DNA of 64,000 nt from a virus, in IMG/VR virus record IMGVR_UViG_3300033998_000198, positions 32,001 to 96,000 of that record. The stretch is one strand, 5' to 3'. A program made the position numbers and the translations under genes. Position 1 is the first letter of the stretch, and each line of letters opens with the position of its first letter. The notes beneath the pieces were generated by a model that made no database searches, had not been told where the DNA came from, and was given only the letters and a program-made list of their open reading frames with translations. Below are positions 1,831 through 28,500 of the stretch, one piece after another.

Positions 1831-1840
1831 GGTGCAGACA

Positions 1841-2638: not shown

Positions 2639-2651
2639 GGAGGAAGCGTAA

Positions 2652-5838: not shown

Positions 5839-5850
5839 TATGGCTAAAAT

Positions 5851-5885
5851 ATAGAGCCGGGCCGGTGTTATCGGCTCGGCTCTAT
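5851..5885 (+). other. Long stem-loop immediately upstream of the RBS of 5904
   Basis: ATAGAGCCGGGCCGG-TGTTA-TCGGCTCGGCTCTAT, a 15-bp stem with two G-U pairs and no U-tract. The AAGGAG RBS follows within ~5 nt. Confidence 0.65.
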
Positions 5886-5903
5886 TGATAAAGGAGAATA
5901 TCA

Positions 5904-9762: not shown

Positions 9763-10359
9763 ATGTTTGATCCAAAACAAGTAGACACGTTAGTAGCTAC
9801 AGCAAGAGAGACTTTGCGTAGACAACAGGAGGAGATGACACCAGGAGAGCCGGAGAATTTCTATCAGGACTTGATAGATGAGCAAAACGGAGAACAGGAA
9901 AAAGTTAAAGTACCTGAGAACGATTATGAAATAAAGAATGCTCCGGATAGTTACGAAGAAAGACCACATATTGCAAACAAACCAAGTGCAGAAGATTATC
10001 AGGAATATCCTAAAATTGATGAATTCGATAAACCAATATTCCCTGGCGGTCCGCTGCAATCTCAAATCAACTCCTGGAAGAAACAGTTCACAGGATATGA
10101 CATTTACGTTACAGAAGTGGCCGGAGAATACTTTGTATTCAGGACTTTGAACCGTTTTGAATACAAACAGATTGTATCTTTGCAAAATACAGATCCTCTC
10201 ATGCGTGAGGAAATTATCTGTGAAACCGTTACACTGTGGCCGGCAGGTTATAAATGGGATAGCATGGCAACGGGGAAGGCCGGCATTCCATCTACTTATT
10301 CTCAGATTATCATGGAGAAATCAGGATTCACTAAAGATTACGCTATCCAAATACTATAA
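9763..10359 (+). CDS. Putative tail assembly chaperone A (198 aa)
   Basis: Position between tube genes and tape-measure-position gene; acidic disordered N-terminus; FVFRTLNRFEYKQI motif shared with the next ORF. Confidence 0.6.
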   Translation: MFDPKQVDTLVATARETLRRQQEEMTPGEPENFYQDLIDEQNGEQEKVKVPENDYEIKNAPDSYEERPHIANKPSAEDYQEYPKIDEFDKPIFPGGPLQSQINSWKKQFTGYDIYVTEVAGEYFVFRTLNRFEYKQIVSLQNTDPLMREEIICETVTLWPAGYKWDSMATGKAGIPSTYSQIIMEKSGFTKDYAIQIL

Positions 10360-11066
10360 TGGAACAATTACAAGCATTCGATCTTTTGGTATTCAAGGAG
10401 CAGAATGAAGGTCACAGGGTCATGTATATCAATATTTGTAATCGTGAGTTTGTATTTAGGACTCTTGGAAAGAAGGAATACAAGAACATCCTGAATGTTG
10501 CAAATAATGAATTTGATCTCGAAGATATGATATGCCAGATTGCTTTGATATACCCTGAAGACTTTGACTTCAAGGATTGTCCTCTTGGAGGGTTGTCAAA
10601 GACAATTGCTCCTTTGATTACCGAACTTTCCGGATTTACCAATCCTGAGATCGTCCAGGAGACTTACGACCAGTATCGCCTGGAAATGAATAGTTTTGAG
10701 AATAAGGCATATGCCCTCATTAAGATGGCATTCCCCGAATTTACGTTTGAAGAAATGGAAGAATGGACATGGGATAAGGTTCTCAAGGTTGCAACAAAGG
10801 CAGAGTTTATCCTGAATGAAACTCACTTTAGAGATAACCCTATCGAGCTTGTCAAAGTAGACACTACGCCGCAGAAACAAATGGAACGCACTGAGTTTGT
10901 TCAGGAACTGCGGCAACAGGGTATTGACCCGATGAAATATTTCTGGAATGAAATTAATGTCAAGCCTCAATATGTAGACTTTCCGTTAATCGGTGGTGTG
11001 CATTGGCAGAACGAGGGGATATTGAATGAGATCAGACGACAGATGGAGAGAGCATCTAAGAGGTAA
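10359..11066 (+). CDS. Putative tail assembly chaperone B (235 aa)
   Basis: TAATG overlap with the previous gene; FVFRTLGKKEYKNI...IC...L..P motif paralogous to 9763-10359. Confidence 0.6.
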   Translation: MEQLQAFDLLVFKEQNEGHRVMYINICNREFVFRTLGKKEYKNILNVANNEFDLEDMICQIALIYPEDFDFKDCPLGGLSKTIAPLITELSGFTNPEIVQETYDQYRLEMNSFENKAYALIKMAFPEFTFEEMEEWTWDKVLKVATKAEFILNETHFRDNPIELVKVDTTPQKQMERTEFVQELRQQGIDPMKYFWNEINVKPQYVDFPLIGGVHWQNEGILNEIRRQMERASKR

Positions 11067-14000
11067 ATATCCAGAGTATCTGGGCAGACAGAGAAAATGG
11101 GCCGAAGATTATGACAGAGACGATACCGTAAAAGACGACAGCATCTTATCAAAACTGCTTATCGCTGCGGCGATAGGTGCTGCCGGATATGGTTTATATA
11201 AAAGCGGTGCATTAAGAAAGGCCATCAGTAAAGGCATTGATGAATTAGGGGAGTATAAAGGCGTTATCCCTGAAGCATTCAATGCCTTAAAAGCATGGAC
11301 TAAAACTGATGTGGATGTTCCAATCGGAAGCATATTCCGTCAGAATTTTTCCTCCTTAAAGTCTGTATCTAACTTTGTAAAGAACAAGGACATTATAAAT
11401 GACACCCTTGCCGATTTACGTGGTCTTCGTGAAATGGTTCAAAAGAGGATCGCACAGGTTAAAGATGAAGCCGACAGGATTACCAAAATGGCTGTCAAGG
11501 AAACAGACTTATTGTTTGAGATAGGTAATCTCAATGAAATGATGGATTCTGTCAAAGCAGACGATATACTGAAACGCCACCAAATGGAAATCGGAAACAA
11601 GGCACTTCAGACACTGATAGAAAAGAGAAGCGAAGGAGCTATGTCAAAGGCTGCCCAAGCAAAGCTCAAACAAAATGGATACAGGCTTCTTACTATAGGT
11701 GATGTTCTCAAGGTAGACACACAGACAAATAAACCGTTGCTTATTAACAGCACAAGCAGGTTCGAAGTAGAAGAACAGACATTAAAAGAACTGACAGATT
11801 TCTTCTCTACCTTTGAGGTAATAGACAAAAAGACCGGGAAGAAGTCTCTTGCAATCAATAACTTTGACATGATCAAAGACATCACATTCGATAGAGGACT
11901 CATGATCAATGAGTTCGGAAAGATTGCAGACATAAGGCGAGCTGACAGACACTTTGCACAGATGATGGTTTCTGCTTCGCTTGATTTTCATATACCGTTA
12001 ATAAAGATACGTCCGTTTGAAATGGTCGGACTGCATAACAAATTCATGCGTCAGGAAGTAAAATACGGTTATCTGTCTGCAAAAACATTTCAGCCAATAC
12101 TTACAGGTAAGCCCGGTCAGGAGTATCTCGGCAAGAGCATGGTGTTCATGCACGGTAATGTATTTGACATAGATAAAAACGGTAACATGAAATTAGTTGC
12201 CCAGGGAGGTAAACTGCTCCATATTCGTGACGACGCAAACGTTGGATATGGAATCAGCAAACACGCCGATATCATAAGAAAAATGGCAAACCTTCAGAAT
12301 GTACACTTCCAGACGTACACAGCCGAGGACGGACGAATCAAGGCGGCTTACTCTAAAGTGATGGAATGGTTCGGGCTTGGTTTCCAGGACAAGAAGATAT
12401 CAACGGAATTTGAACTCTTTAAGCCTTCAACATGGGATTCTCTACTTAATAAATGGCAGCCGTTCAGGCCATACAAATCCTCATTTGTAACAAGACCGCA
12501 GGATTCTTTCGGACATTCTCCGACAGGTCCTACGTATTTGTTTATGTATCAAGGCAAGACATTTAAAGACGTAATGCAAGGCAGCGTATCTATAGAGGAT
12601 TTCTTCAAGCAGTTTGTTGCAGGAAGAAAGAACTTGAAGAATGTAACTACGGCAACAATGGTTCCGTATCATCTTCTTGACCGTCTCAGCAACTCGCTGA
12701 GAGCTGTTAGTGCAGGTGGTATTAGCCTTGGCTTAAAGACAGAAGACCTTGGATCGGTCCAGGATATCTTCAAGAACTTGATGCTAAAGCGTATACTTCC
12801 GGTTTATCTTGGCATACAGGCTTGGATATACATAAATAACAAAGAAGAAGGCAAACAGCCTGAAGACAAGATTGCAAATACTGTTGTAAACCTCGACCTT
12901 GCATGGCATGGAGTAAAAGACAGGCTCGGCCTTACATCTTGGGCAAAACGTGTATCTCAGCTTATGCCAGGAGGAGAGCAGATAAGTGACATTCCCGGTC
13001 TTGGAGTTCTCGATATGACTTCAACCAGGGAGGAAAAAGAACAATGGTACAAGACTGGTATGGAGCCAATTCGTAAAGGGCGTTACTGGAGTCTTGGCAA
13101 TACTCCATTTACTGGAGGCAAGATAGAATATTATGCACCAAATTGGTACAGAAGGGTAATCAGCGATTACAAGTGGACAGATTCACAGTGGGGAAGTCGG
13201 GATGAATACTTTGCAAATGCTCCATTTCCGACTCCAAAATATCCTTTCGCTCCAATACGGCACTTTATTACTGACCCGTATCATTGGGAGAAAAAGCATT
13301 ATCATGACAGACCATATATGCTGTCGTCTCCGGCATTCAGTAATGTACCAATAGTAGGTCCTGTACTCAGTGCAACTCTTGGCCGGCTGTTAAAACCACA
13401 GATTCGCATGCATCCTGAAGCATGGGCACCAAAACTTGAAGGGTATTCGGTCGTGGATCAAGGAACAGGAGATAACACCGGTACTGTTCTTCCTGACCAA
13501 TTGGTTGCAACAAATAGGTTTCCTGGAACTGAAATCACAGTTGTCCCTGAAGCAGAAATGGGACAGAAGCCGCTTGATTCATTGTTTCATTGGAGCAGGA
13601 AACCGAAGACCAATACAAATGATATTATATATGTTACGCCAAGCGGGCAAACAAGCATTGTCAGCATACCTAACAGCATCTCAATCAAGGATTTGAACGA
13701 CCAATTACGTAAAGAATCAATCAGGAAAGTCCGTGGTGCGTCTGAGAAACGTGATGGTGGTCTGATTAAAGATAACGCTGTTGCAAAACAACTCATCAGC
13801 AATATCGAGAATACGTTAAATGACCAATACGATGTATTCTCTGAAATTGGAGGTATATATGGATTCGGTATCAATGCTCTTATAGGTAATGGTTCTGATG
13901 TTGGTGGTGTGGAAATCGAAACACCCGCCTATGCGACATCCTTAAATAAAGCATTCTGGGATCAGGATCTCGGTGGACTTGGTGGAGAATTCTCTGAAAT

Positions 14001-16617
14001 CTATCGTAGGTTTATACCAAAGAGAAGGCGTGAGATTGAATATTACAATCCAATCAGAAACACCATGCCTACATGGATGCCGGGAACAGATTATTTTACA
14101 GACTTCCAGCATGGTGATCCTTACGCCAAGATTAAACGTGGAGAAGCAAGACTTCCTGGAGAAGGGTATGAGAAGCTATATGGAATCAGAGACCCTATGG
14201 AGCTCGGAATAGGTTCGTCGTTTATAGGTAAATCAGTTGATGATATCGTTAAACATTTCTTACACCAGGACGAAATCATAGACGAAGACCAGCTTGATAT
14301 TGTGCAATCTGGTACAGATTTTCATGAGAAAGTTCAGTCGGCATGGAAAAAGAAAGGCTTGCTTCTTGATGCAGAAGTTGAAGTTAATGACAGGAAACAC
14401 AATGTCATTGGATTCTATGATGCACGTATTCTTGATGAATCTTCACCAACAGGCGACGCTATTGCTGAAATAAAGACAATCAACGATAATGGGTTTAAGG
14501 AACTTGACAAAAAAGGGCCAATGGATTACCACCAGAAACAGCTTAACTTCTATCTGTGGGCAACACATAGGCCAAAAGGTTATATTTATTACATCAACAG
14601 GGATCATCCGGAACAGGAAGCAAAAATATTCCCTATGGCATATGACCAGAAGATGATGGAAGAAACATTCAAGAATCTTGAGCAAGCCAGGAAGATCATC
14701 AAAGACAAAATAGCCTTAAATGAGATCCAAAGAGGAGACTTGTACGATTACTTTGACAGGTTCCGCATACTTGCAGATGTAGCACCATACTCAAAAGAGT
14801 TCAAAGAATACAGGGCTTTGATAAGCAAGATGCAGCTAACCAAGGAACAAGAGGCTGAAGCAAAGGAAATACGTAAGCGTGTAATTGAACAAAACAAACC
14901 GCTTAGGATATATCCTTATAAATTCCAGACTTCAAACATAAAAGTACAGACTGTAACTGTAAAACGCAAGATAGACAACGAGAAGTTCCTTACATATGAG
15001 TTCCCTGACAACCCAATAGAGCTTGCCGGCGTTAATCTTCCTAACAGCAAAACTTCCAAAGAAGGGAGGGCAGCAACTCAGTTTATTGACCGGTTTATCC
15101 ATGAAGGAGCCAGGATACAGGTCGGAGTTGATGCAGACCCGTTGAACCTTATACAGGATAACACTTATAAGACGATCAAAGCTGTCGTATACTCAGGCAA
15201 GACAAACATCAACCGCACGGCAATACAGCAGGGAGTAGGAAAGGAAAATGAAGATGACTTCTCGCCTGCCGGTGTTCATGCTCGTTTTACCGAAGGTGAA
15301 ATCAGATTCGGCAAAGTATGGGAGAAATTCGCTCACTTGAATACTATGTTCCATATAAAGTTCTTGCAGGTAAGGTCTGCACTTGAGAGTTATGAACGCA
15401 GGGATTTATACGGCAAAGACTTTCAAAGATGGGAGCATCCTATCCGGGACTTCCTCCGCCCAGCAATCGACCAGAATATAAACAACAAGTATGGAATACT
15501 GGTTGGCGGTTTGGTCGGCTCATTGTTTGGCCGTACACTTTATGGTAAAATTATAGGAGCAACAGTTGGTGTTGCAGTAATTGGTTCAGGTAAGGCATAC
15601 AAGAAAGCATATGAATTAATTTCAGGTGAGAAATGGATACCTGAACGCAGGGAAAAAGAACGTGATTTAAACGAATACATTGACATCCTGAAATTTATCA
15701 AATACAAGCGATTGTATGTTGAGTATGCACAGAAATCAAAACTCAAGGAGAACTTTGATGTTCAGAAGTTCCTTGACGCTCAGAAAGCTCGTGGTGAAAA
15801 AAATAAAGCAAGAATCAAGGATCTTGAAGAAGCAAAGAGGTTAATAAAAATCAAGGGCGACAGTGCAATACGGTCGATGTATAAACAGTATAGACCAAAA
15901 TACGGCACCCCAGGAATGAACGTGGACGAGATGATATCTGCAATCAACAAAGAAATGACAGAACTCATGAATGAACGAAAGGCCGTTAAAGTTCCAAAGA
16001 TTGCACAAAAGGCCATTGCATACTACAACTTATCAGAGAAGACCATGTACGGATACGATGTCGGAGAGCCTATCCAAAACATCCTGGCCGCAATGCCAAA
16101 GAAGGATAGACAGTATCTCAGTTACTTTATGAAAGCTCCGGAAGAAGAACGCATGAAGATTCTTGAGGTGGCTCCACGGTATGTCCGCAGGGTTCTCGAA
16201 CAAACATGGGGGCTGCCTGTTGAGGGCAAACCAGATCTTATTCAGTATTTCAAGCACCATCAACTTCCAGGACCTGACTGGGAAGGATGGGATGAAAACA
16301 TAAACCTGGATCTGGTTAAAGTTAAAATGGTTCGTAATGAAGCCCTTGATATTTCAGATTTTAATATCTGGGAAGACGACGTGCAGCAGGCAAAAGCAAT
16401 GGGACCTATTCCGCTGCCTAAACTATATATAAGTGACTATGCAGAGAAGGTAAAGGCAAAACTCGAAGATCTACTGCACGGAATAGGACTAAACGACGTA
16501 TCTGTAAGCTATTCTCTATCATCAAAGGATATTGATGTAGATATAGACCTGCAAAGAGACAAAAAGAAAGAGATAGAGAGGTACATTAACGAAAAAGGTG
16601 CATCTCTATTCCAATAG
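11026..16617 (+). CDS. Giant tape-measure-position protein with PD-(D/E)XK nuclease and degenerate thermonuclease-like domain (1863 aa)
   Basis: GAGGG RBS at 11013-11017. Hydrophobic Gly/Ala segments (IAAAIGAAGYGLY; GILVGGLVGSLFG...GATVGVAVIG). Nuclease motifs GTDFH (14311-14325), E, GFYD (D at 14419), EIKT (14467-14478), QLNFY. SNase-like V..KIDNEKF...IELAGVNLP...EGRAATQF...AVVY.GKTNIN (~14941-15250). Confidence 0.75.
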   Translation: MRSDDRWREHLRGKYPEYLGRQRKWAEDYDRDDTVKDDSILSKLLIAAAIGAAGYGLYKSGALRKAISKGIDELGEYKGVIPEAFNALKAWTKTDVDVPIGSIFRQNFSSLKSVSNFVKNKDIINDTLADLRGLREMVQKRIAQVKDEADRITKMAVKETDLLFEIGNLNEMMDSVKADDILKRHQMEIGNKALQTLIEKRSEGAMSKAAQAKLKQNGYRLLTIGDVLKVDTQTNKPLLINSTSRFEVEEQTLKELTDFFSTFEVIDKKTGKKSLAINNFDMIKDITFDRGLMINEFGKIADIRRADRHFAQMMVSASLDFHIPLIKIRPFEMVGLHNKFMRQEVKYGYLSAKTFQPILTGKPGQEYLGKSMVFMHGNVFDIDKNGNMKLVAQGGKLLHIRDDANVGYGISKHADIIRKMANLQNVHFQTYTAEDGRIKAAYSKVMEWFGLGFQDKKISTEFELFKPSTWDSLLNKWQPFRPYKSSFVTRPQDSFGHSPTGPTYLFMYQGKTFKDVMQGSVSIEDFFKQFVAGRKNLKNVTTATMVPYHLLDRLSNSLRAVSAGGISLGLKTEDLGSVQDIFKNLMLKRILPVYLGIQAWIYINNKEEGKQPEDKIANTVVNLDLAWHGVKDRLGLTSWAKRVSQLMPGGEQISDIPGLGVLDMTSTREEKEQWYKTGMEPIRKGRYWSLGNTPFTGGKIEYYAPNWYRRVISDYKWTDSQWGSRDEYFANAPFPTPKYPFAPIRHFITDPYHWEKKHYHDRPYMLSSPAFSNVPIVGPVLSATLGRLLKPQIRMHPEAWAPKLEGYSVVDQGTGDNTGTVLPDQLVATNRFPGTEITVVPEAEMGQKPLDSLFHWSRKPKTNTNDIIYVTPSGQTSIVSIPNSISIKDLNDQLRKESIRKVRGASEKRDGGLIKDNAVAKQLISNIENTLNDQYDVFSEIGGIYGFGINALIGNGSDVGGVEIETPAYATSLNKAFWDQDLGGLGGEFSEIYRRFIPKRRREIEYYNPIRNTMPTWMPGTDYFTDFQHGDPYAKIKRGEARLPGEGYEKLYGIRDPMELGIGSSFIGKSVDDIVKHFLHQDEIIDEDQLDIVQSGTDFHEKVQSAWKKKGLLLDAEVEVNDRKHNVIGFYDARILDESSPTGDAIAEIKTINDNGFKELDKKGPMDYHQKQLNFYLWATHRPKGYIYYINRDHPEQEAKIFPMAYDQKMMEETFKNLEQARKIIKDKIALNEIQRGDLYDYFDRFRILADVAPYSKEFKEYRALISKMQLTKEQEAEAKEIRKRVIEQNKPLRIYPYKFQTSNIKVQTVTVKRKIDNEKFLTYEFPDNPIELAGVNLPNSKTSKEGRAATQFIDRFIHEGARIQVGVDADPLNLIQDNTYKTIKAVVYSGKTNINRTAIQQGVGKENEDDFSPAGVHARFTEGEIRFGKVWEKFAHLNTMFHIKFLQVRSALESYERRDLYGKDFQRWEHPIRDFLRPAIDQNINNKYGILVGGLVGSLFGRTLYGKIIGATVGVAVIGSGKAYKKAYELISGEKWIPERREKERDLNEYIDILKFIKYKRLYVEYAQKSKLKENFDVQKFLDAQKARGEKNKARIKDLEEAKRLIKIKGDSAIRSMYKQYRPKYGTPGMNVDEMISAINKEMTELMNERKAVKVPKIAQKAIAYYNLSEKTMYGYDVGEPIQNILAAMPKKDRQYLSYFMKAPEEERMKILEVAPRYVRRVLEQTWGLPVEGKPDLIQYFKHHQLPGPDWEGWDENINLDLVKVKMVRNEALDISDFNIWEDDVQQAKAMGPIPLPKLYISDYAEKVKAKLEDLLHGIGLNDVSVSYSLSSKDIDVDIDLQRDKKKEIERYINEKGASLFQ

Positions 16618-16628
16618 GGGGTTAAAGC

Positions 16629-19600
16629 ATGGCAATTAGACCGGTAATGAGTGCTAATATGAACAGTAACCTGAAGATGAACAGGTATAGTGATTTCTTC
16701 AATGGCATGGATGAAGAAAAGATTGACGCATATAAAAACGTCCGTGGAATGATAGATGAGTTAAAAGGTACTGAAGCCGACGTATCATTAAAGGACTTTT
16801 ATTTCAAGTCATTCAATGCAGGAGTAATGGATTATAACATTCCTGCACTTGAGCAAGGCATGAATATGTTTAATGATATGCTGGACGCCGGTGCCGGTTC
16901 TGTGTACGCAATGGACCTTGAAACTCTCGGCAACCCTTTTGGTGATGCATCAGAAAAGGGTTTGTTTGCCATTACAGAAATGACTCTTACCAAGAAAGAT
17001 CTCGCAACAGGTACTGTCCTTGACGTACAAAACGTCCTGTTCGGCCTTACTGAAGAACAAAGGCTTGCTTACGAAAATCTGATTGCCAGAGCTGAACTCG
17101 GATACAACTCATTGACCAGTTCAGAAAAGGCAACTATAGAACGTCTTGCAAGGTATGGAGCAAAGGATACTAAGATTATTAACAGAGGAGGCAAAGCAAT
17201 ACTTGCCAACCTCGGTATAGCTAATCCTATGGATCTTACCGCAGCAAAGAAGGGTTTAAATAGACTTGTAGATATAGGTCCCGGGCAGGCATGGGGTAGC
17301 CAGTTTGCCCGTGACCAGCTAATCATTGCATCAAATCACTTAAATCAGATAAAAGGCCCAAACAATATTTTGTTCACACACAACGGCAGCAAGTTTGATA
17401 TGCCTGCTTTTAACGAAGCATTACGTATGCATGGTATTAGCAATACAATTAACGACATAAACCATGTTGACTTTCAAGCTGCCATTCATACAGCATATGG
17501 TGGAGATACACTGAATCTTCACTTAACAGCCCGTGAAACAAACGGTGTAAAAGGTAAGATTAAAGGGGCTCTTGAAACTCTTGATAAACTTGCAGAATCT
17601 TTTGGTATAAGGACTCACGCCCATGTTGCCTCAAACGACAACAGGACGTTGATTAACCTTTTAACTGCTCCGTACAGGAAAACTGAGCATGGTACAATCA
17701 ATCTTGGCCAGGACTTAAAGTCCAGACTGAATGCATATTCAGTTCTGTCAAAACACCAGGACATTGATCCAAGCACTGTTGCTGACAAGGTTATATTCGT
17801 AAAGAATGCCGTATATACAAATGGTCTTGACTACATAAAAACAAGTGAAGGAATCAAACCTTACGGAGACTGGCCATTACAAAGGAATAATTTCTATAGG
17901 ATTGAAAATGTCGGGAAAGTAAATATCAAAGACACCGCTTCTTTGCGGAAGATAGGCATAAATGTGCCTGCCGGAAGCACTGGAAGTGATCTTTATTATA
18001 TGACACTACGCAATGTGGCTACCGGTAAAGAAGAAGAAACAATAAATATAGTACGTAGTTCAAGAGAAGAACTTCAGGCATTGTTCCAGAAAAATCTTGA
18101 GGTGTTCCGGTACACTAAAGACCTTAAAGATATAAGTTCAGACCTTGACGCAAAGATGGCATTGCAAAACCAGATTGTAAGCCAGGCAATGATTGATGAA
18201 ACGACAAGGCTTGCCACAAGGGACAATGCAAGACGTAAGTTTGAAGGTATGTTCCAGACTTCAGGTAAAGGGTTTAATTATGCCAAAGGAATGTACCAAA
18301 CCTATAATAATTTATACCAGAACGGCATTACAACAGCGGAAGAAGCGGCACTCTATATCCAAAACAATCCTACAAGTGAATTGTTAAGAGGTCTTCAGTA
18401 TAAAGGAGATATTATACCCGAACGTCGTAGTGATTTCCTTGAGATGTTCAACCTCATCAGAGATACTTCAGACACGATGACTACTGTAATCAACAGAATT
18501 GAATCCAACATCCCAGTCAAAGGAGAAGCTGGAACCGTCAAAAGGACTGTTGCTCTCGGACGTGCGTATGAGAATCTTCAGAATGCAATTATGCAAGCCT
18601 CCGGTGTTGCTGAGAACATAGCAAAGAACAGGAAGCTGATAACCCCATATCCAATGGATATTGACGTTATTAATATAGGTGTTGATGACATTCATAGAAT
18701 CACTGTAAGGGCTCGTTCTGTTGAAGAAGCAAGGATTAACATATTAAATGGAATAGACAAACTGGTAGGTACAGAGAAGAACAAGAGGGCAAGAGAAAAC
18801 AAACGAATGTTCTATCTAAGACGGCTTGCAGAGAATGTCTATGGAAAAGATTCAGAGAAGCTGGAACGTATGTTTGGTCAGCTTGACAGTGCATACTATA
18901 CTGCCGGAGAAATTGCAGGCGACCTTAACAAACAGTTCCTTGACGGAACATTAAATATCGGCCGTGACGAGATATACGCTACAGATCTTGATAGTTATGT
19001 CATCAATTCATCTACATTTGACCAGTTCATGGTTGATAATAACATTAACGTTCTTGGCTTGACCGACGCTGCAAGTGCCCATATCGGGTCTTTAACCGAG
19101 GCTTCTCTTGGCGATACAGTTGTCATGGAAAAAGGCGTGTTTACCATTAAGGATGAAAACCTTAGAAAACTCTTGATGGAGGATTATCACTATAGTGCAG
19201 ATAACGTGCACGACCTTATGAGAGGATTATATGGTAAAAGTCCGGATGGTACTGAATACGGCCTTGTCAATAAACATGGTTTGGTTGCCGAATTGTTTGT
19301 TGACGAAGAAGGGTATCTTTCTATAGCATTGACAGACAAGAAACATGCAACAGAATTATACGAATCTCTGGCAAAGAACGAGGTTCCAAAGAACGCGGCC
19401 ATATCAAGGCTTCCGCAGGTAAGCTATTATGGCGATGACACTGACCTGTTAAAGAAGGTGTCATTTGGAAGCGTTGAGAAACAGGTAACTACTGAACTTA
19501 ATACATATTATTCTCCTGGTTCGAGCGAAAGCTATTATAATAACATCAGGATAGCTGCAAGGGACACAACCAGCGAATCGCTAAACTCCCTTGTTAAACT

Positions 19601-22600
19601 CCACAGGGTTCTTCCTGACCTGATAGAAGCAGGAGAGTACGACAGAGCTTCAAGGCAGCTTACAAATACAATGGCTGCTCCTATATTTGGAGGTTCTGGT
19701 TTCTCAGGAAATACAACAGTAGCAATTGACGATATTCTTGCTGAAAAAGCTCTGCGTCCGAACGTATCCGATATTATCACGGCATCGACCGTAGATATGA
19801 CCGGACTTGTAAACTTCATCCCTGAGCTCTATAAAAGAGACGAAGAAATAAGAAATGACCTTAACCGCATACTTGTAAACAACAAAGCGATCGACGACAG
19901 ATTTATTGATAACTGGATAAGGGATATCCAGGCAGGAAACCTCAAACAATTCAGTGACATGGACATCGAGTTACGTGAATGGTACACGATGAATATGTTT
20001 GAAGGTCATAAGATACTGCATAAAATCCGCGACCTTAAAGCTGAAGGAGGACGTTTATTCCAGAAGGAAGTCTCATTACTTGACAGCTTGATTGCAAATG
20101 GAGCTTCGTTCTTTAACAAGGCTGAAAAAGTATCTGAGGGTATTGCTGTATTGGAAAATCCATTTGAGTATGTAACATATGGATTCATGAATGAGCTTTC
20201 CCGTCCTGTCGCAAGGCAATCACTTGCATTTCACGCCCTTGACCCAAGAGAACTTACAGGTGCTTCAGTTAAGCTCGAAGCGGCCGGTATGAAACTTGGA
20301 CAGACTGTAGTTACAGACAAAATGTATAACAAGTATCTGAAAAAGTATAGGTTTGAAACAGGAATTACCGGTGACATAAAGAATTTGAATGACACCGAGA
20401 TACTTGATGCAATAGAATCTCTTGACAAAGAAGAATTATACAAGAAGTATGGTAGGTCAAGAGTTGATAAGGTTATAAATGAATATAAGACAATCGGTAG
20501 TACATTCCAGCAGCACTCATTGATTAATCCGATGCTGACTGCTGACATATACAACAAACCTGAGCTTATAAAATTTGATGTGACAGGCAATAGTTTTGAG
20601 TTTGCCGAAGGGCTTGGTGTTGGTAAAAAAATCAAATCCGGTTCTTTACTCGGATACGAAATAGACGGAGAAACAAGAAGGGCTGTTGTATACAATGGTC
20701 AGGATGGAATAATCTCTGGATTTATCAACAGAAAGAACGCACAAAAAGTTGTCATAAAACCATTTAATGCACAGATAGATGAAATAAAGCTCATCATGGG
20801 AGGTGTTGAAAAATCTGTTGCATCTGTTGTAAACCGAGATGCCGAAATGCTTCCTATAGCTCAGGAAATCTGGGATAAACTATTTGGTAAGAGTACAGCG
20901 GTCGTAGGGCGATTTGAAATAGGAAAGCACGAAGCTGCAAGCATCGCATACGGTAGCACTATTACCAGAATGGCTGAAAGAGCTCTTGAGCATGGAGAAG
21001 CTGTACAGAATGAATTCGCCAATCTTTTAAACCAGAACCTTCCCGAATGGAATGGCCGATGGGAAGGAAACAAGTTTGTCATTTCAGGGAATCCGAATGC
21101 TGCCGGAGGACATTTCAGCGGCATACGAAACCTTGTTGATGCAATGAGAGATAAGGGTATTTATGATGATATCATAGCCGACTTTGACAATCCGAACACA
21201 AATACGCTGCGTACTTTGATATCTAAAGGTCAGATGTCCGAAATGTTTTCTGTCATGGAAGACGAAGCGGATATTTACGGAAAAGGTCTCAAAATTACAG
21301 ACCGTGAGTTACAGATTGCAGGTATTAGATCTGGAGAACAACCGACGGATTTCTTTTTCCAGGATGCCAACGGTAAATGGCAAAAGAAATTACAACCTGT
21401 TATTGACGCATGGCGTGAGGAAATCACACGAGAAAATATCGAGCTTGAGAACGGTAAATTACTTGAAACCAATTACAGCAAAGCAAAGAAAGACCTTAGA
21501 AATATAACCAACACATACAGTGCATTGCGTGGCGAAACACCGACAGCAGCTATTAAAGAACTTCATTTTGATGATGTAAAACCGATATTAAAAGGTGTTG
21601 ATGCTGCAACACTCGAAGATGCTTTAAAAGGGACTGTGTTTGAAGATGTTGCCGATGTGTTTAAGATTACCCTTCCAAATAATATGAAGGTCTTAAACAT
21701 GGTTACAGGCGAAATGGATGACCATATTTATATACCGTATCTGCACTCATACGATATTGACGGCAAGGTTATTACACATAACGCCCACAGAAAATCAGCA
21801 GACCTTCTAAGGATGCTTGACAGTATTGCCGAAGGCAAACTTCCTAACGGCGTAAGAAGCATGAGTCAATTACAGAGTGCATTAAATGACGCTTATGCTG
21901 AAGCTATGGCCGCATACGGGCGTGAACTGTCTGATGACAAGAACAGTATATTAAAGAGACATCTGGTGTCCGGAAGATTATCACATTCGGGACAGGGACT
22001 TGCTGGTGCTGTTGTTTCACCTGAATTATTCAAAAACGGCGAAGTAGATTCACGGCTTGCCGGAATTGTGCATAGCGATGTTGTAGAGAAGGTCGGAGAT
22101 AAAATACTCTATAAGGATGTTGCTTATACATCTGCTGAGATGCTCGAAGACATGGGTGTTAACTTTGCAGAGATAGGGCGGCAGGTTCTTGAAGACAAGA
22201 AAATACGTTCTCAGATTGGTGACGTGGACGCATTTATTGCAAGATCCGGATTTAACCGCTATGATCTTACAAAGGCACCTATAGACATTGACATGCTCCA
22301 TGAGATCATCAAGCAGAAGATACTGAAAGACAACAATCCTTATACAATAGATGATGCAAGGGAAGCCCTTGAGAACCTCACTCAGCTTGGTAAATATTAT
22401 GCAAGAGAAAAGGGTATCATGAGTATAATGCTTCGTTATCCGTCATTCTTGCAAACATCTCTTGGAGTAACAAATATCAGATTGTCTCCTTACATGCATG
22501 GTCGTAAATTCAACATCATGAGTTGGACGGCAGCAGGATTAAACGCCGACATTGACGCTGATAGACTTTCTGTATGGCTCAATCTTACAAAAACCGGAGG

Positions 22601-25523
22601 ACTTCAAGCTGATACTGAAGTTAAACAGAAAGCACTGATAGATGTATTTAACGCTCAAGCAAGAAACAATGCCAAGCTATTTAAGAAGGCTCTTGAAGAT
22701 TATGCCGACGTAGAGCCTGACGGACTCAAGGCTTATAGTGCAAAAGGCTTCGATGAATTTCTTGTCAAGAAGATTTCAAAGAAGTTAGGGTACACCGGAA
22801 CAGATCAGGAAATCTTCGACCAGTTTGATGCAAGATCCAACAAACTGATGGACCCTGAAAGAAGAATGACAGCCGTAAAGGCCAACTTTGACAAGGCCGG
22901 TATCGGTTATATATCAAACACTAATGTGATTGTAAGGGATATAGCTTTTGAACAATTCAGAGATTCTGGTGATATATATACACTTTCAAACATCCTTGAG
23001 TTTACAGACAAGACAGAGCAGAAACTGATTGACGTTAAGCATATGAAAACAATGGGCGAGGGAAGCGGTAATATTGATGATATCATTATCAAAGCCGGAC
23101 GATACAGAACTGCAATAAACACCCTCGCAACAGGTGATGCAAGGCAAAAAGATGAAGCAATCAACAAACTTCGTGAAATTTTGTTCAATAGTGATGTTTA
23201 CAAGAGAGAGCAGTCCGTAAGGGTTGATGAAGTTCTCAGTTCGCTCCGTCAATTGTTTGACAGCAAGTATGCAAAACAATGGACAAACCCAATCAGAAGC
23301 AAGATGTCAGGAAAAAATTATGCCGAACAGATTAAGGACGTCAATAACTTCCTGAAGAATCCCACAGCATACGGCGGGACTGAGTTAACAAATCTTTCTG
23401 TCAATGAAGTGATTCATGCAAATGATATAGACACTATAAGCATTGACGATACAGCTCTTGTTCCTCCATCAAAAGGAACAGAATATCCCGTCTTGCTAAA
23501 GGACAGTGCTGGCAAAACATCTCCACCAATAGGTGCATATGTATATAGTGGTTCAGGTGTTGGTGCCAATACCAATATGAAGTATGTTGAGCTTGAAGAA
23601 TTCATCACAGATCCTTCTGTAAACAAAGCAAGAAGCAAACGTTACAGGATATACGGCAATACAATGGCTGATATCCAGCGTCAGATGAGAGATGAGTTCA
23701 GAGTAGCAACTGACATCAATGATGTCCAGAATTTGATTGATGTTGAGAAGGGTAGAATCCTTGACTCGGCGATGTCAAGCGGTTTTGAGTTCGAGAAAGA
23801 GCGTATTACGGCTGAATTCTTAAACGGTGGAAGTATTGATGATATTTTGGCCAAATCAACCATAGGGGTAGAGAACCGTCAGGATATCATCGATCATCTT
23901 ACCAATCTTAACCCTACTCAATATCAAAGCGAAGCATACAGGCAATTGGCTTCAGAGTTCTTTGACAACGAAATGACTGGCCGGCCAATGCGTAGATTCT
24001 CTGCCGCAGTATCAGAACTGGCTGAAAGAAATTACATTGGAAACCAGGCAAGTCTTATACAGGCATTTAATAACTATATACGGCAACGTGGTGCTGAAGG
24101 CCCTTCAGACAAATGGAATCCTGCAATGATTTCAGATGTCCATGATGAATTAATCCGAAAGGCATTGTATCAGGTTCCAGGTCTTCCATCAGCACAGATA
24201 GAAGGAATCCTAAACCAGGTTAACACCGTAGCGGACGATATGATAGCCCGTAAAGGAGAAATACGGTTAAGACCTGCTAAAGTACAGAATGTTGCCGAGA
24301 CTATTGCAAGAATACAGGATACTCCATTGTATGACATGAAAAGTGCCTTCTCTCAACTTGAGAACATGGCAAACGATATGTTAGGCAATATAACAAAAAC
24401 TCAACTGGAAAGTTTTGCTGAAGCAACACGGCTTAGTCCCGAAGATGCTATCGCAAAACTTAGGCATACTGTAAAGAACGAGAATATCCAACTTCCATTC
24501 AAGGCAATCACTCAGGCTGAAAGCGTTAAGATAGCTTCGCTTAACCAAATGTATTCAGAGCTTCTTGCGTCAAAGAACCAAGAAGCAATGGATTTCCTTG
24601 GCTGGAAACCTATAAATGAAGTTGTCAACGCATACAACCCAAGTGCGGCAGCAAGAGCTGTAGGTGAAACTTACGACCCAATTGCGGCCATACGTGAAAT
24701 TGGCCAATCCAAAGTTACTTATGGAAGATATGCCGGCATGGAGTTCTCGTCATTATCAATCGGGGAGCTCAAGGAAATTATGAATCTCCGTCCTGAAACT
24801 GCAAAGACCAGAATTGAAGCGGACAATATTGTAGCTCTCAAACAAAGAGTAAATCAATATTTCTCATTGCTTGACCAGAATACATCAGCAGTAAGAGCTG
24901 AAGGAATTAGTATAAATATTCCTGAAGCTGTACGCAAATCGAGGTATGTTGATGTAGATATAAACGAACTTTTAAAGTCCAATGGTATAAAGTTAAAGAA
25001 CTTGGACGATTTATTGGATACAACCAAAAGGGACTTAAAATTTGATATGGCTCGTGGTACAATAAAAGAAGGGGTAGAAAATGCTGTCAAGCGTTCCGAA
25101 GATTTGTTTGGAAGCAGTAAGTTCGGAAAGATAGCTCTTGCCGGTTTGGCTCTTGGTCTTGCAGGATATATTGTTGGACAGATGAGTGCAAAACCAGGAC
25201 CGCTACAACCGGAGCATAGACCTTCAGGCGAAGGAGCTCCCGCACCAGATGGAACTTACGAACCGAAAGTCAACTATAAAACACCACAACCGCAGATGCC
25301 AAAGAAAGCAGTAATGCAGGAAAACAATTCTGGAATGCGGATAAAGATAAGTGCAAAGAATGGAACCAGCATGTCAAACAGTGATGTTGCTGGAGCAGTA
25401 AACAAAGCCATCGCTGATTCCTTGCCAAATAGAATGAATGTCAACGTGGTTTCAAGAGACGACACCAGTGCAGTCAATGACAGTTGGTTGGAAGAACAGT
25501 TTAAGAGGCTTATAGGAGGGTGA
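16629..25523 (+). CDS. DEDDh exonuclease fused to single-chain two-barrel (double-psi beta-barrel) RNA polymerase, putative virion RNAP (2964 aa)
   Basis: Exo I MDLETLG (D96,E98), Exo II HNGSKFD (D257), Exo III HVASND (H332,D337). Beta-like KLIMGGVEK (K1387/K1395, spacing 8 as in E. coli beta K1065/K1073). Beta-prime-like LRYP (R1936) and NADIDAD (D1974/1976/1978). Downstream GIGYISN and QKLIDVKH. C-terminal hydrophobic helix. Confidence 0.85.
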   Translation: MAIRPVMSANMNSNLKMNRYSDFFNGMDEEKIDAYKNVRGMIDELKGTEADVSLKDFYFKSFNAGVMDYNIPALEQGMNMFNDMLDAGAGSVYAMDLETLGNPFGDASEKGLFAITEMTLTKKDLATGTVLDVQNVLFGLTEEQRLAYENLIARAELGYNSLTSSEKATIERLARYGAKDTKIINRGGKAILANLGIANPMDLTAAKKGLNRLVDIGPGQAWGSQFARDQLIIASNHLNQIKGPNNILFTHNGSKFDMPAFNEALRMHGISNTINDINHVDFQAAIHTAYGGDTLNLHLTARETNGVKGKIKGALETLDKLAESFGIRTHAHVASNDNRTLINLLTAPYRKTEHGTINLGQDLKSRLNAYSVLSKHQDIDPSTVADKVIFVKNAVYTNGLDYIKTSEGIKPYGDWPLQRNNFYRIENVGKVNIKDTASLRKIGINVPAGSTGSDLYYMTLRNVATGKEEETINIVRSSREELQALFQKNLEVFRYTKDLKDISSDLDAKMALQNQIVSQAMIDETTRLATRDNARRKFEGMFQTSGKGFNYAKGMYQTYNNLYQNGITTAEEAALYIQNNPTSELLRGLQYKGDIIPERRSDFLEMFNLIRDTSDTMTTVINRIESNIPVKGEAGTVKRTVALGRAYENLQNAIMQASGVAENIAKNRKLITPYPMDIDVINIGVDDIHRITVRARSVEEARINILNGIDKLVGTEKNKRARENKRMFYLRRLAENVYGKDSEKLERMFGQLDSAYYTAGEIAGDLNKQFLDGTLNIGRDEIYATDLDSYVINSSTFDQFMVDNNINVLGLTDAASAHIGSLTEASLGDTVVMEKGVFTIKDENLRKLLMEDYHYSADNVHDLMRGLYGKSPDGTEYGLVNKHGLVAELFVDEEGYLSIALTDKKHATELYESLAKNEVPKNAAISRLPQVSYYGDDTDLLKKVSFGSVEKQVTTELNTYYSPGSSESYYNNIRIAARDTTSESLNSLVKLHRVLPDLIEAGEYDRASRQLTNTMAAPIFGGSGFSGNTTVAIDDILAEKALRPNVSDIITASTVDMTGLVNFIPELYKRDEEIRNDLNRILVNNKAIDDRFIDNWIRDIQAGNLKQFSDMDIELREWYTMNMFEGHKILHKIRDLKAEGGRLFQKEVSLLDSLIANGASFFNKAEKVSEGIAVLENPFEYVTYGFMNELSRPVARQSLAFHALDPRELTGASVKLEAAGMKLGQTVVTDKMYNKYLKKYRFETGITGDIKNLNDTEILDAIESLDKEELYKKYGRSRVDKVINEYKTIGSTFQQHSLINPMLTADIYNKPELIKFDVTGNSFEFAEGLGVGKKIKSGSLLGYEIDGETRRAVVYNGQDGIISGFINRKNAQKVVIKPFNAQIDEIKLIMGGVEKSVASVVNRDAEMLPIAQEIWDKLFGKSTAVVGRFEIGKHEAASIAYGSTITRMAERALEHGEAVQNEFANLLNQNLPEWNGRWEGNKFVISGNPNAAGGHFSGIRNLVDAMRDKGIYDDIIADFDNPNTNTLRTLISKGQMSEMFSVMEDEADIYGKGLKITDRELQIAGIRSGEQPTDFFFQDANGKWQKKLQPVIDAWREEITRENIELENGKLLETNYSKAKKDLRNITNTYSALRGETPTAAIKELHFDDVKPILKGVDAATLEDALKGTVFEDVADVFKITLPNNMKVLNMVTGEMDDHIYIPYLHSYDIDGKVITHNAHRKSADLLRMLDSIAEGKLPNGVRSMSQLQSALNDAYAEAMAAYGRELSDDKNSILKRHLVSGRLSHSGQGLAGAVVSPELFKNGEVDSRLAGIVHSDVVEKVGDKILYKDVAYTSAEMLEDMGVNFAEIGRQVLEDKKIRSQIGDVDAFIARSGFNRYDLTKAPIDIDMLHEIIKQKILKDNNPYTIDDAREALENLTQLGKYYAREKGIMSIMLRYPSFLQTSLGVTNIRLSPYMHGRKFNIMSWTAAGLNADIDADRLSVWLNLTKTGGLQADTEVKQKALIDVFNAQARNNAKLFKKALEDYADVEPDGLKAYSAKGFDEFLVKKISKKLGYTGTDQEIFDQFDARSNKLMDPERRMTAVKANFDKAGIGYISNTNVIVRDIAFEQFRDSGDIYTLSNILEFTDKTEQKLIDVKHMKTMGEGSGNIDDIIIKAGRYRTAINTLATGDARQKDEAINKLREILFNSDVYKREQSVRVDEVLSSLRQLFDSKYAKQWTNPIRSKMSGKNYAEQIKDVNNFLKNPTAYGGTELTNLSVNEVIHANDIDTISIDDTALVPPSKGTEYPVLLKDSAGKTSPPIGAYVYSGSGVGANTNMKYVELEEFITDPSVNKARSKRYRIYGNTMADIQRQMRDEFRVATDINDVQNLIDVEKGRILDSAMSSGFEFEKERITAEFLNGGSIDDILAKSTIGVENRQDIIDHLTNLNPTQYQSEAYRQLASEFFDNEMTGRPMRRFSAAVSELAERNYIGNQASLIQAFNNYIRQRGAEGPSDKWNPAMISDVHDELIRKALYQVPGLPSAQIEGILNQVNTVADDMIARKGEIRLRPAKVQNVAETIARIQDTPLYDMKSAFSQLENMANDMLGNITKTQLESFAEATRLSPEDAIAKLRHTVKNENIQLPFKAITQAESVKIASLNQMYSELLASKNQEAMDFLGWKPINEVVNAYNPSAAARAVGETYDPIAAIREIGQSKVTYGRYAGMEFSSLSIGELKEIMNLRPETAKTRIEADNIVALKQRVNQYFSLLDQNTSAVRAEGISINIPEAVRKSRYVDVDINELLKSNGIKLKNLDDLLDTTKRDLKFDMARGTIKEGVENAVKRSEDLFGSSKFGKIALAGLALGLAGYIVGQMSAKPGPLQPEHRPSGEGAPAPDGTYEPKVNYKTPQPQMPKKAVMQENNSGMRIKISAKNGTSMSNSDVAGAVNKAIADSLPNRMNVNVVSRDDTSAVNDSWLEEQFKRLIGG

Positions 25524-25530
25524 GGTCATA

Positions 25531-28500
25531 GTGGCAGACTATAGAAAAAGCACTTCCCTGTTCTCTAAATACAGAGATCCGGGAGGTATTAGCACAGGCG
25601 AGCTATTAGACAGATATTACAACATTCCCGAAGGCAGGACTACAGCTCCCCTGTCTTACCTTGATAATGTCGATTTTCCGCATAGGATATTCGATTTCCA
25701 TTATAACTTCAGACTTGGCGATTGTCAGTTCAAGATCCCTCCGGAATTCATACAGGTAAAGACAATTACCGAAACAAATTCCGTTGTAGGAATTAGACAG
25801 TCTACTTCGCTAAAAACCAAATCCGGGTATAGCCGTAAACAGATCGTTATTACTCTGTTTTTCAACGGACTTAACCAGATCAACGGATATAAATGTGAAT
25901 CGCCTTTTTCATATCCTTACTACATGGACGGTCTCCGGAGTCTTCTTGCTCAATTCAAGAGGACCCCGTTCCTTCCTGTTGTAAATGAACTTATTAATGG
26001 AGTACATGGAATATACAATGTAGCATTATCAAACATTACAATCAACACCGTACAGGGGTTTCCTGAATGTCTCCAGGCGGAACTCACGTTGCTTGACTTT
26101 AACGTCGTACCGTTGATTGAAGCTCCTCCTTTTATGTATCATAACATGATAGACTGGGATATGTTCAGATGGTACTATCAGCAATTACTTCGCCCTGATG
26201 ACAGGGTATACGACAGGAACGAACATGCTACAACAAGACTTCAGCCGATACAGAATACAAACCTTACAGGTAAGTTCGGATTGTATATATTAAGCGAAGA
26301 AGCTCTTGCTGCAATGAACGACGGAAAGTACAAGCCAGACCTAAGCGACAGCAGTAACTATATACTGTGTGTTGACGACGAAACCGGTATACGCCTGACA
26401 GATATATTCTGCGGTTACTCAAACGTGCTTCCTGCAATACAGTTAAGCAAAGAAGGGACGCCTACGTATCAGTATCTTGGAGGTACAGATGCGACGTTTA
26501 CCTTTATATTTGAAACTCAGGACAGAGATGTCGTTACGGCTCTGGTTGACTTAAATGAACGATGCCAGAGGATGGTAAGGGAGTACCGCAAACTTCACGG
26601 CCTCGGCTTCATCAAAATAGAGAACGAATTAGTGCAAATGCTCGGTGCACAGTATGTCATGTTCAATACAATGGACATCACTACTGTGCCCGACTTCCCA
26701 GATTTGTTTAGAATACAGATAGAGGCTGTAAGTTACGATATTGACCAGAGTAAGAAAGAAACATTGACTGGCATGAAGCCTTTCGATGGCGATGGCACAT
26801 TGCTTGCCAGAAAAGTAGGTACAACCTATGATTGGACTGAAGTCGCAGAACCAAACACAACCATCACTAACACTTATATGGGTCTTATCACAAAGATCCG
26901 GCAGGACAATTACATAGAACACAAGATGAAGCTCATGGACCTTTATCCGGACCTTCAGCTACCTACGTTTGAAGAATTGGATGATTTTATCACAACCATA
27001 AGAGAATGGAGAAGGAGTAAGGGGCTTCAGGCATATCCTTTGTCTGGACCGTACCCGAAAGACGACGGTAGAATTAAATTCTCAGATCCTGATTTCTACG
27101 TTTTCTACCCTATTAAATACGGAGACGCACAGAATATTATAACAGGAACCGGAGGAAATGTAGGAGGAGAAACTTACGATCCTGATGACGGTGCAATTTC
27201 AGTTGCCGGTATATTCAAGTCTGGATTGTATGGTGCAACAGAAACTACGCCCGGACAGCACCCAAAGACACAAGAATTGCTTAAACTTCTTGAGAGCAAA
27301 ATAGGATGCGGATATGTATGGGGTGCTGAAGGAGAGATTCTTACTCAGGAAGGTCTTGCTGCCTTAAAGAAGCAATTTGGAGCAAGTCATTATGATTTTG
27401 TTGATGATGATGGCACTCGTGTTCTTGCAAGTAAATGGATAGGTAAACAGGTGTTCGACTGCTCTGGATTTATTAACTGGGGGCTTATCCAGGTTGGAAT
27501 TGCTCCAAAAGGATACAGAACCACACATTCAACTACTTTTAATGACTGGTGTATCGAAATCAAAAAGAGCGAAATACTCCCTGGCGATATAGCCATGAAT
27601 TCAACCCATATCGCAATGATATCTGATCCTGACAAAGATCAAACAATCGAGGCTATGGGTACACGGTACGGTGTTGTTCACGGAAAGATAGGGAATAGAT
27701 TCACAAAGTTTGGAAGACTAAAAGGCGGAAAGACAAAGAGCTCAACAACTCCAACACCGAATGCCGCAACTCAACAGGTTAGCAAGGCACAGACTACAGA
27801 TTACAATGCAAAGCGTGATGCTTATAACCCGACATACCAGGCAATTTACGATTATGCAAACATACAGTGCACAAAGCTCGGCGTTCCAATTCGTCTAATG
27901 TGTGCAATGATGGAGATAGAAAGTAATTGGACACAATGGTGGACGACAGCAGGGAAGAAAGCGGATGGCAAGTACCATAACGCAGGAGATGTTGTAAGGT
28001 CTTACGCAAATGCTGTTGGTATCTGCCAAATTGTGCACCATAGTCCTAACGGTACTCCTGTCAATAATCAATACGATTATGACAAACTGCAAAATGACTG
28101 GAGATATAATATAGAGTGCGGGGCCAAAGAACTTTATGAATGCTATAAGGGGGCATCACAAAGATTTACAAATGAAGAAGACCGAGCAAGAGCTGCATGG
28201 TGTGCATATAACATGGGGCGTTATGCAAGTCAGAGCTATACAAGATGGAGAGATAACCCTAACAGGGATGATATAAAGTTTAAGGAATATTATGAGAAGC
28301 AACCCTGGTTATCGAGAATTGACACCGCAAAGATTCCGACTTCCAATGGGACAGATTACACTGGAAGCGTAGAAGTTCCAGAAACCGACCTTAGTGTTAC
28401 AAACAACTTTGCAAGTCTTAACTTCAACAGGGAGGAATTCGGCAAAGATATACGCAGACTGTCCGACATCCACGGCGGTGTAAAAGAAACCAAGAACTTT

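Follow-up and report, generated by a model that had tools for sequence, protein, structure and literature searches.

Phage-injected RNA polymerases (RNAPs) are known from few lineages, namely the N4-like, crAss-like and phiKZ-like phages and Thermus phage P23-45. In P23-45, gp96 is a virion RNAP fused to the tape-measure protein, and it has been proposed to transcribe the pre-early genes as the DNA enters (Chaban et al. 2024, PMC10770324). Two-barrel polymerases share eight universal residues, including Rpb1 R446/P448, Rpb2 K979/K987 and Rpb2 D837 (Ruprich-Robert and Thuriaux, PMC2919709), and enzymes of the YonO type and those of RNA-dependent RNA polymerase (RdRP) type (QDE-1) are without the beta sandwich-barrel-hybrid insert (PMC7824862). 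Here we describe P0001, a giant gene in the tail operon of IMG/VR record IMGVR_UViG_3300033998_000198 (a 131.9-kb linear viral contig, estimated to be 61% complete), of which positions 32,001-96,000 form the window, that is, the whole stretch of 64,000 nucleotides (nt) that was analysed and to which all coordinates refer unless another sequence is named. Its predicted product joins a DEDDh exonuclease to the N-terminal side of a two-barrel RNAP-like centre and, by analogy with the injected polymerases, looks like an enzyme package that would enter the host with the DNA.

The ATG of P0001 lies 11 nt past the stop of the upstream giant gene, with a GGGGG Shine-Dalgarno-like run 8 nt upstream of it, and the gene is laid out as follows (aa, amino acids; pLDDT, predicted local distance difference test).

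16629..25523, + strand: whole gene P0001, one uninterrupted open reading frame (ORF) of 2964 aa
16629..16835, + strand: N-terminal leader, aa 1-69, with 17% pairwise identity and low pLDDT
16836..17738, + strand: predicted DEDDh (DnaQ-fold) 3'-5' exonuclease domain, aa ~70-370
20346..21254, + strand: predicted beta/Rpb2-like double-psi barrel with sandwich-barrel-hybrid insert, aa 1240-1542
22434..22562, + strand: putative beta'-like barrel catalytic segment, from R1936-x-P1938 to N-A-D1974-I-D1976-A-D1978 (family consensus N-x-D-x-D-G-D)
23229..25121, + strand: C-terminal body, aa ~2201-2831, of which the part at aa ~2300-2500 is homologous to aa 1735-1961 of phage 0305phi8-36 gp146
25122..25184, + strand: transmembrane-like segment, aa ~2832-2852, the sole strongly hydrophobic stretch of P0001
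25185..25520, + strand: conserved C-terminal module (P2888, W2953), common to 0305phi8-36 gp146, Edson 0920, WH1 gp095, KLEB27-3 gp034 and MTATph1 CDS0031

Structurally, we predict with high confidence that the N-terminal domain has a DEDDh exonuclease fold with an intact active site. Its motifs follow one another in the order Exo I, II, III that is canonical for DEDDh exonucleases, whose histidine general base separates them from the DEDDy subclass.

16911..16931, + strand: Exo I, MDLETLG, aa 95-101 (D96, E98); D-x-E in all complete relatives except P0014
16971..16985, + strand: second-strand motif ITEMT, with E117 invariant in the family alignment
17112..17300, + strand: insertion specific to the family, placed between Exo I and Exo II, aa ~162-224, modelled as helix, beta-hairpin, helix
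17376..17399, + strand: Exo II, THNGSKFD, aa 250-257 (N252, D257); D257 invariant in full-length members
17463..17471, + strand: H-V-D (D281), invariant in full-length members
17616..17639, + strand: Exo III, HAHVASND, aa 330-337 (H332, D337); its H-x-A-x-x-D form is the defining mark of the 'h' subclass

We take the ITEMT strand to be the counterpart of the I-I-E-I strand in Pol III epsilon, and D281 presumably marks the strand with x-D(T) that comes after Exo II in exonucleases of the DnaQ type. The insertion between Exo I and Exo II (~60 residues) holds conserved E166, R172, L173, Y176 and G209. Of the 16 relatives whose sequence covers Exo III in full, 15 have the H-x-A-x-x-D form, and P0004 and KLEB27-3 have H-x-G-x-x-D. 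A 16-sequence family alignment was the basis of an AlphaFold2 model of aa 1-411, which adopts an RNase H-like alpha/beta fold with pLDDT >90 across nearly all of aa 70-370 and turns disordered past aa ~370. Foldseek searches of the PDB with this model recovered RNase T, TREX1, TREX2, exonuclease I and polymerase exonuclease domains; DNA exonucleases rank best (Cas2-DEDDh, a DNA polymerase entry, DinG, TREX and epsilon), the RNA-active DEDDh enzymes RNase T and 3'hExo lie within about 1 Z unit of the top DNA exonucleases, and canonical exonucleases align to only ~170-185 of the ~300 residues of the P0001 domain. The family profile, run against PDB sequences, reached TREX1-type chains at E=5e-5 over the span from Exo II to Exo III.

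Current sequence models count against this assignment. No Pfam or NCBIfam model scores above threshold on the domain, the sole Pfam match of P0001 is RNase_H_2 (E=0.021, 15.2 bits versus a cut-off of 22), and P0001 does not qualify as a member of RNase_T (PF00929). Weak Pfam matches occur among the relatives (RNase_T in three, RNase_H_2 in four), phmmer of whole P0001 against PDB sequences gave no match, and scans of the whole protein and of aa 1-450 with Pfam, PHROGs and NCBIfam placed no family above threshold; a DUF7605 match in the family scans proved unrelated. As judged from its motifs, the domain is a divergent branch of the DEDDh class that these models miss, and by fold and chemistry it is an ordinary DEDDh exonuclease. 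Its identity to known members (TREX1/TREX2, Pol III epsilon, RNase T, the Cas2-DEDDh DnaQ domain and the S. aureus DinG N-terminal exonuclease) is 14-21%, and unlike them it carries the conserved insertion and is joined N-terminally to a tail-operon protein of ~3000 residues. The preliminary description of this DNA had read the three motifs and the residues D96, E98, D257, H332 and D337 from the translation of 16900-17660 and had assigned them to a DnaQ-type domain; the numbering is exact, all three motifs fall within the interval, the folded domain is a little larger than it, and the DnaQ fold is present in the model.

The centre of P0001 is very probably a two-barrel RNA polymerase, a reading that starts from catalytic motifs. 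K1387 and K1395 (nt 20787-20813) stand 8 residues apart, as do Rpb2 K979/K987, and like E1394 and H1434 they are invariant or nearly so in the full-length alignment. Further along, R1936-Y-P1938, which corresponds to Rpb1 R446/P448, lies 36 residues before D1974 and is at least 90% conserved, and within NADIDAD (aa 1972-1978), the putative metal-binding D-x-D-x-D of the beta'-type barrel, D1974 is invariant and D1976 and D1978 are at least 90% conserved. Seven of the eight universal two-barrel residues listed in PMC2919709 are present, and the equivalent of Rpb2 D837 had no confident match in a low-resolution structural alignment. The AlphaFold2 model of aa 1240-2200 is poor overall (pLDDT 60), with its first 300 residues reasonably confident. 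All of its top-50 Foldseek matches are beta/Rpb2 chains, the segment with K1387 and K1395 aligns structurally to Rpb2 770-1058, and isolated hybrid-barrel domains match aa ~1312-1380, which in the model is the predicted sandwich-barrel-hybrid insert typical of cellular-type beta subunits. By hhalign, NADIDAD aligned weakly with E. coli beta' NADFDGD (E=0.04), and the family against E. coli beta gave nothing meaningful. The structural match to beta/Rpb2 is weak but specific, and the beta'-type barrel is recognised at motif level. P23-45 gp96, crAss gp66, QDE-1 and YonO are absent among the structural matches listed, which has little weight since the model of aa 1240-2200 is poor.

Polymerase and 3'-5' exonuclease on one chain are a hallmark of replicative DNA polymerases, and the centre could accordingly make DNA or primers, with the exonuclease as proofreader of an injected two-barrel DNA polymerase or primase-like enzyme. 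Archaeal PolD, a two-barrel core with an exonuclease on a separate subunit, is the parallel and shows that such a core can make DNA (PMC7708050; 10.1101/2023.08.09.552591), and sugar selectivity is unreadable from the P0001-family sequences. We regard this as very unlikely: within the tail operon the gene takes the place of an ejected protein, a beta-type hybrid-barrel insert is present in the barrel, the structural matches are all transcription enzymes, and the complementary distribution of YonO-type RNAPs (see below) points to transcription. We also know of no virion DNA polymerase in tailed phages.

Evolutionarily, the pairing of exonuclease and polymerase recurs throughout the P0001 family. 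An exhaustive HMMER search with aa 1-450 against 1.84 billion cluster representatives returned 15 proteins, 11 of them 2512-3120 aa long with the exonuclease at the N-terminus. The other four are short, and standalone or split exonuclease genes, which they might have represented, found no support, as the three that were looked up (P0003, P0008 and P0017; 402-421 aa) are truncated by contig ends; the fourth, P0013, is 261 aa long. A word-indexed search of 5.8 billion proteins found P0001 itself only, a tblastn search of 50,697 phage records with aa 1-450 and with aa 1400-2300 gave no match, and an IMG/VR related-locus search with P0001 alone gave no relative. Profile searches with slices of the family alignment reached members, missed by BLAST, in three isolated Bacillus jumbo phages. 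Each of these proteins combines the C-terminal module with the exonuclease and a beta'-type barrel (ADHDGD or ADYDGD).

Edson, GAKEdson_0920: 2515 aa, family member in an isolated Bacillus phage
vB_BceM_WH1, gp095: 2515 aa, annotated as virion structural protein
vB_BauM_KLEB27-3, gp034: 2434 aa, annotated as structural protein

All catalytic residues are kept in 18 of the 19 sequences complete over the exonuclease domain, and the exonuclease precedes the RNAP in every intact full-length member (14/14). Mean pairwise identity is 25% in the exonuclease, 24-26% in the two barrel modules, 24% in the C-terminal module and one linker, and 17-22% in the rest. The sole member with a destroyed exonuclease site is P0014 (3008 aa, full length, normal gene context), where D96 is replaced by H and N252 by D, and H332 and D337 are lost. 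Its polymerase site is likewise the only one destroyed in the family: K1387 has become N, R1936 has become K, P1938 has become S, and one aspartate of the triad is left. P0014 shows that a non-enzymatic scaffold role exists, being full length and in its normal context with the site destroyed, and the DnaQ fold could in principle be kept elsewhere too as a catalytically silent module that is structural or binds nucleic-acid ends. For the family at large this seems highly improbable, given that the five catalytic residues, together with N252, E117 and D281, are kept at only about 25% identity, a pattern that is hard to explain without selection for catalysis.

These relatives bear out the preliminary description, which had read this region as an intact DEDDh exonuclease fused N-terminally to a two-barrel RNAP: fold, catalytic residues and homologue conservation all support it, the fusion is found in every complete homologue, and decay is confined to P0014 rather than being the general state of the homologues. 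That the exonuclease shares its chain with the RNAP barrels is upheld by the motifs and, less strongly, by the fold. As candidate roles the description had offered proofreading or trimming of transcripts, processing of the injected genome end and degradation of host defence nucleic acids, and it had suggested that the exonuclease may be released by proteolysis, for which the disorder of the model past aa ~370 is the one hint. Absent from that description were the tape-measure slot of a 0305phi8-36-like tail module, the family members in isolated Bacillus phages and the double decay of P0014.

Judging from its gene order and homologies, the virus is a 0305phi8-36-like jumbo myovirus, and the position of the P0001 gene between the tail chaperones and the baseplate hub is that of the tape-measure slot.

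280-4961: tail sheath genes, the sheath with 36% identity to that of 0305phi8-36
5032-7430: tail tube genes
9763..11066, + strand: tail-assembly chaperone-like gene pair, in synteny with 0305phi8-36 gp143/144 and WH1 gp097/098
11026..16617, + strand: upstream giant of 1863 aa, homologue of the 0305phi8-36 virion protein gp145 (34% identity, 97% coverage)
25531..31161, + strand: downstream giant of 1876 aa with an SLT transglycosylase domain, homologue of the 0305phi8-36 baseplate hub gp147 (30% over 63%)

Baseplate-like genes follow the downstream giant, and the order chaperones, giant, P0001-type gene, hub, baseplate is the same in four metagenomic relatives, Edson, WH1, KLEB27-3 and 0305phi8-36, the last with gp146 in the slot. 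The upstream giant contains a Cas4/RecB-like PD-(D/E)xK nuclease segment (aa ~1093-1228, nt ~14300-14710), recognised by PHROG 1990 (E=1.2e-5), TIGR00372 cas4 (E=3e-7, below cut-off) and tblastn to phage RecB/Cas4 exonucleases.

The slot proteins themselves differ. In 0305phi8-36, gp146 is a 'hypothetical tape measure protein' that stands, like P0001, between gp145 and hub gp147, with flanking giants homologous over most of their length. Its homology to P0001 is confined to the C-terminal third (hmmsearch E=1.4e-9 over aa ~2300-2500 and E=2e-12 over the terminal module; hhalign E=3.9e-5), and no exonuclease or RNAP motifs or profile matches were found in gp146. Because the two share the C-terminal third only, the slot protein is, by these alignments, modular, with a shared C-terminal anchor that includes the hydrophobic segment and with exchangeable enzymatic heads. 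A separate YonO-like RNAP is encoded in 0305phi8-36 by orf99 (PF05183, E=1e-20; discussed by Hardies et al., PMC2147016), and PF05183 found no match in Edson, WH1 or KLEB27-3, all of which have the slot RNAP. Neither PF05183 (for a second RNAP) nor PF04542 (sigma factor) matched in the source record, which is uninformative at ~61% completeness, and a promoter scan around the P0001 gene gave a count equal to chance expectation. In the isolated Moorella phage MTATph1 (6513-13869 of that genome), the slot gene appears to be split by the transposase gene CDS0028 and an adjacent 252-aa ORF, CDS0029. In the first part (1309 aa), aa ~846-1067 form an exonuclease of the family type in which every motif is present, no RNAP barrel was detected in the slot protein by profile search, and the C-terminal module lies after the insertion in a separate ORF, CDS0031. 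The complementary distribution of the YonO-like enzyme and the co-decay in P0014 suggest, on few lineages, that the slot module is the phage's own transcription enzyme with two linked activities.

Functionally, we posit a course of events modelled on P23-45 gp96 and on the behaviour of tape-measure proteins, from which orientation and ejection are borrowed. P0001 would travel in the tail lumen, its C-terminus towards the baseplate, and would be ejected ahead of the DNA, its hydrophobic C-terminal part engaging the membrane. Because that C-terminal end would be distal and membrane-engaging, the N-terminal exonuclease would emerge last, nearest the leading genome end. There it may trim 3' ends, most likely those of phage DNA as it enters, acting together with the fused polymerase, such that the first-entering DNA end is prepared or cleared and the injected polymerase can start early transcription. 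Delivery in the virion is, by analogy, probable: gp146, whose C-terminal third is homologous, was found in virions by mass spectrometry according to its record, and the annotations of WH1 gp095 and KLEB27-3 gp034 call them structural. That exonuclease and polymerase are functionally coupled, at work on phage nucleic acid, is our tentative preference, held at somewhat less than an even chance, and is favoured by the constant exonuclease-RNAP order in the 14 intact members, the joint decay in P0014 and the complementarity of the slot RNAP with YonO-like orf99.

Several observations weigh against this reading. Geometrically, preparation of the template is awkward, because 3'-5' resection exposes a strand with its 5' end at the terminus, which an RNAP would read outwards, not inwards. 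The co-decay argument comes from a single lineage, and two giants follow the chaperones in the tape-measure slot, either of which may be the real tape measure. Since MTATph1 keeps the exonuclease without a detectable RNAP, these few lineages also suggest that the exonuclease has value by itself, and the upstream virion protein carries a nuclease domain even in phages without a slot RNAP, which fits a general idea of nuclease cargo.

On that idea, the domain would be an autonomous injected nuclease that degrades host, plasmid, competitor-phage or defence nucleic acids from their 3' ends, with the fusion serving co-delivery only. We consider this possible though rather doubtful, and an anti-host nuclease comes out as nearly as likely as the trimming of DNA ends. 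Besides the MTATph1 slot protein, it would account for the Cas4/RecB-like nuclease next door, whose carrier is conserved at full length in 0305phi8-36 without a slot RNAP, for the cell-wall hydrolases on the hub protein, and for a slot protein built from a shared C-terminal module and exchangeable N-terminal parts; polyvalent proteins likewise fuse RNAP modules to unrelated effectors (PMC5512222). It sits less well with an architecture that is constant in all intact members and with two active sites that decayed together in P0014. A lone, non-processive DEDDh domain in few copies per virion also seems weak against a chromosome, and no search pointed to a defence-related target.

The same constant fusion and co-decay could instead reflect editing of transcript 3' ends, that is, removal of misincorporated or backtracked 3' nucleotides or trimming of early RNA for a polymerase without a Gre/TFIIS-type factor. 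Coronavirus nsp14 ExoN works with its RNA polymerase and offers an analogy, and the RNA-active RNase T and 3'hExo are among the tied structural matches. We judge this unlikely. Two-barrel RNAPs already cleave RNA in their own active site, fidelity would be of little weight for short-lived early mRNAs, and ~870 residues separate the exonuclease from the first barrel. The top structural neighbours are DNA exonucleases, though with the RNA enzymes within that narrow Z range, and the MTATph1 exonuclease has no RNAP whose transcripts it could edit. It is similarly improbable that exonuclease and polymerase form one machine, in which case a DnaQ-type 3'-end editor would for the first time be built into a two-barrel nucleotide polymerase. 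Such an editor might proofread RNA or primers, or might resect the entering genome end into a polymerase start site, and the whole unit would be threaded through the contractile tail and work at DNA entry. If this were true, the joint decay in P0014 would be the evolutionary trace of the coupling.

Other features of the locus stand beside these questions. Between the exonuclease and the first barrel, aa 380-1239 (window 17766-20345) comprise ~860 conserved residues, with D401, R419, Y423, D532 and R535 among the invariants, and part of this stretch is also kept in Edson and WH1 (E about 1e-10); aa 380-1240 gave no family match, and an ESM Atlas look-up returned only unnamed clusters. The tail tube gene and its paralogue (5032-7430) match PHROGs named 'major head protein', a name also borne in the 0305phi8-36 RefSeq record, whose own notes say tail tube, and on a tail tube this looks like a propagated mislabel. 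The paralogue has an endolysin-like, peptidoglycan-binding C-terminal segment (aa ~357-438). A fourth giant ORF, of 4110 aa, comes later in the structural module (window 36019-48351).

The P0001 family would add a clade of large contractile-tailed Firmicutes phages to the few lineages with injected RNAPs. In this clade a cellular beta/beta'-type polymerase would occupy the tape-measure slot, preceded by an intact proofreading-type exonuclease (decayed in P0014), a pairing that is uncharacterised for any two-barrel RNAP and that raises how an injected polymerase engages the first-entering DNA. A literature search found no report of a two-barrel or tape-measure RNAP with a fused DnaQ-fold exonuclease, in agreement with the preliminary description, which knew of none, and no description of an RNAP in 0305phi8-36-like slot proteins; the members in isolated phages are annotated only as structural or hypothetical proteins. 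With family members in Edson, vB_BceM_WH1 and vB_BauM_KLEB27-3, biochemistry and genetics become possible in culturable Bacillus phages.

Among known systems, the polyvalent proteins of phages and conjugative elements (Iyer et al. 2017, PMC5512222) resemble P0001 in being very large and in delivering several effector domains with the invading DNA, RNAP modules included. Those modules are of the N4/T7 type, however, and a two-barrel RNAP with a DnaQ-type exonuclease in a tape-measure slot is absent from the architectures in PMC5512222. Archaeal PolD shares the two-barrel core, in its DP2 subunit, but its exonuclease has another fold (Mre11-like) on a separate subunit, DP1, and its product is DNA. 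Coronavirus nsp12 with nsp14 ExoN shares the DEDDh chemistry, with a polymerase that is right-handed. Both PolD and nsp12/nsp14 pair a polymerase that has no exonuclease of its own with a 3'-5' exonuclease, an arrangement that P0001 may parallel. Nearer in proposed function are crAss-like phi14:2 gp66 and N4-like gp50, each an injected polymerase in a multi-domain giant for early transcription (10.1101/2020.03.07.982082; PMC5512222), as we propose for P0001. They belong to podoviruses and are packaged in the capsid, gp50 is a T7-type polymerase, gp66 groups with a phage/plasmid single-subunit clade (PMC10770324), and a DnaQ-fold exonuclease is reported for neither.

Thermus phage P23-45 gp96 (also in P74-26, G20c and TSP4) is, like P0001, a tail-gene giant that combines a single-chain two-barrel RNAP with a C-terminal part carrying a membrane segment, and it has been proposed to leave the virion through the tail. 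P23-45 is a siphovirus, and its RNAP makes up the first ~1200 of the 5002 residues of gp96, which also has a metallopeptidase and for which PMC10770324 mentions no exonuclease. P0001, in contrast, comes from a contractile-tailed phage, its RNAP lies at aa ~1240-2200 behind the predicted DEDDh exonuclease and ~870 further residues, and its barrel has the cell-type hybrid-barrel insert. Sequence similarity between P0001 and gp96 was not found by tblastn in the phage collection, and gp96 is missing from the structural matches listed for what is a poor model. The tape-measure-fused virion RNAP of P23-45 is nonetheless the closest known system, one that shares with P0001 a strategy, and not its sequence, its order of parts, its tail type or its exonuclease.

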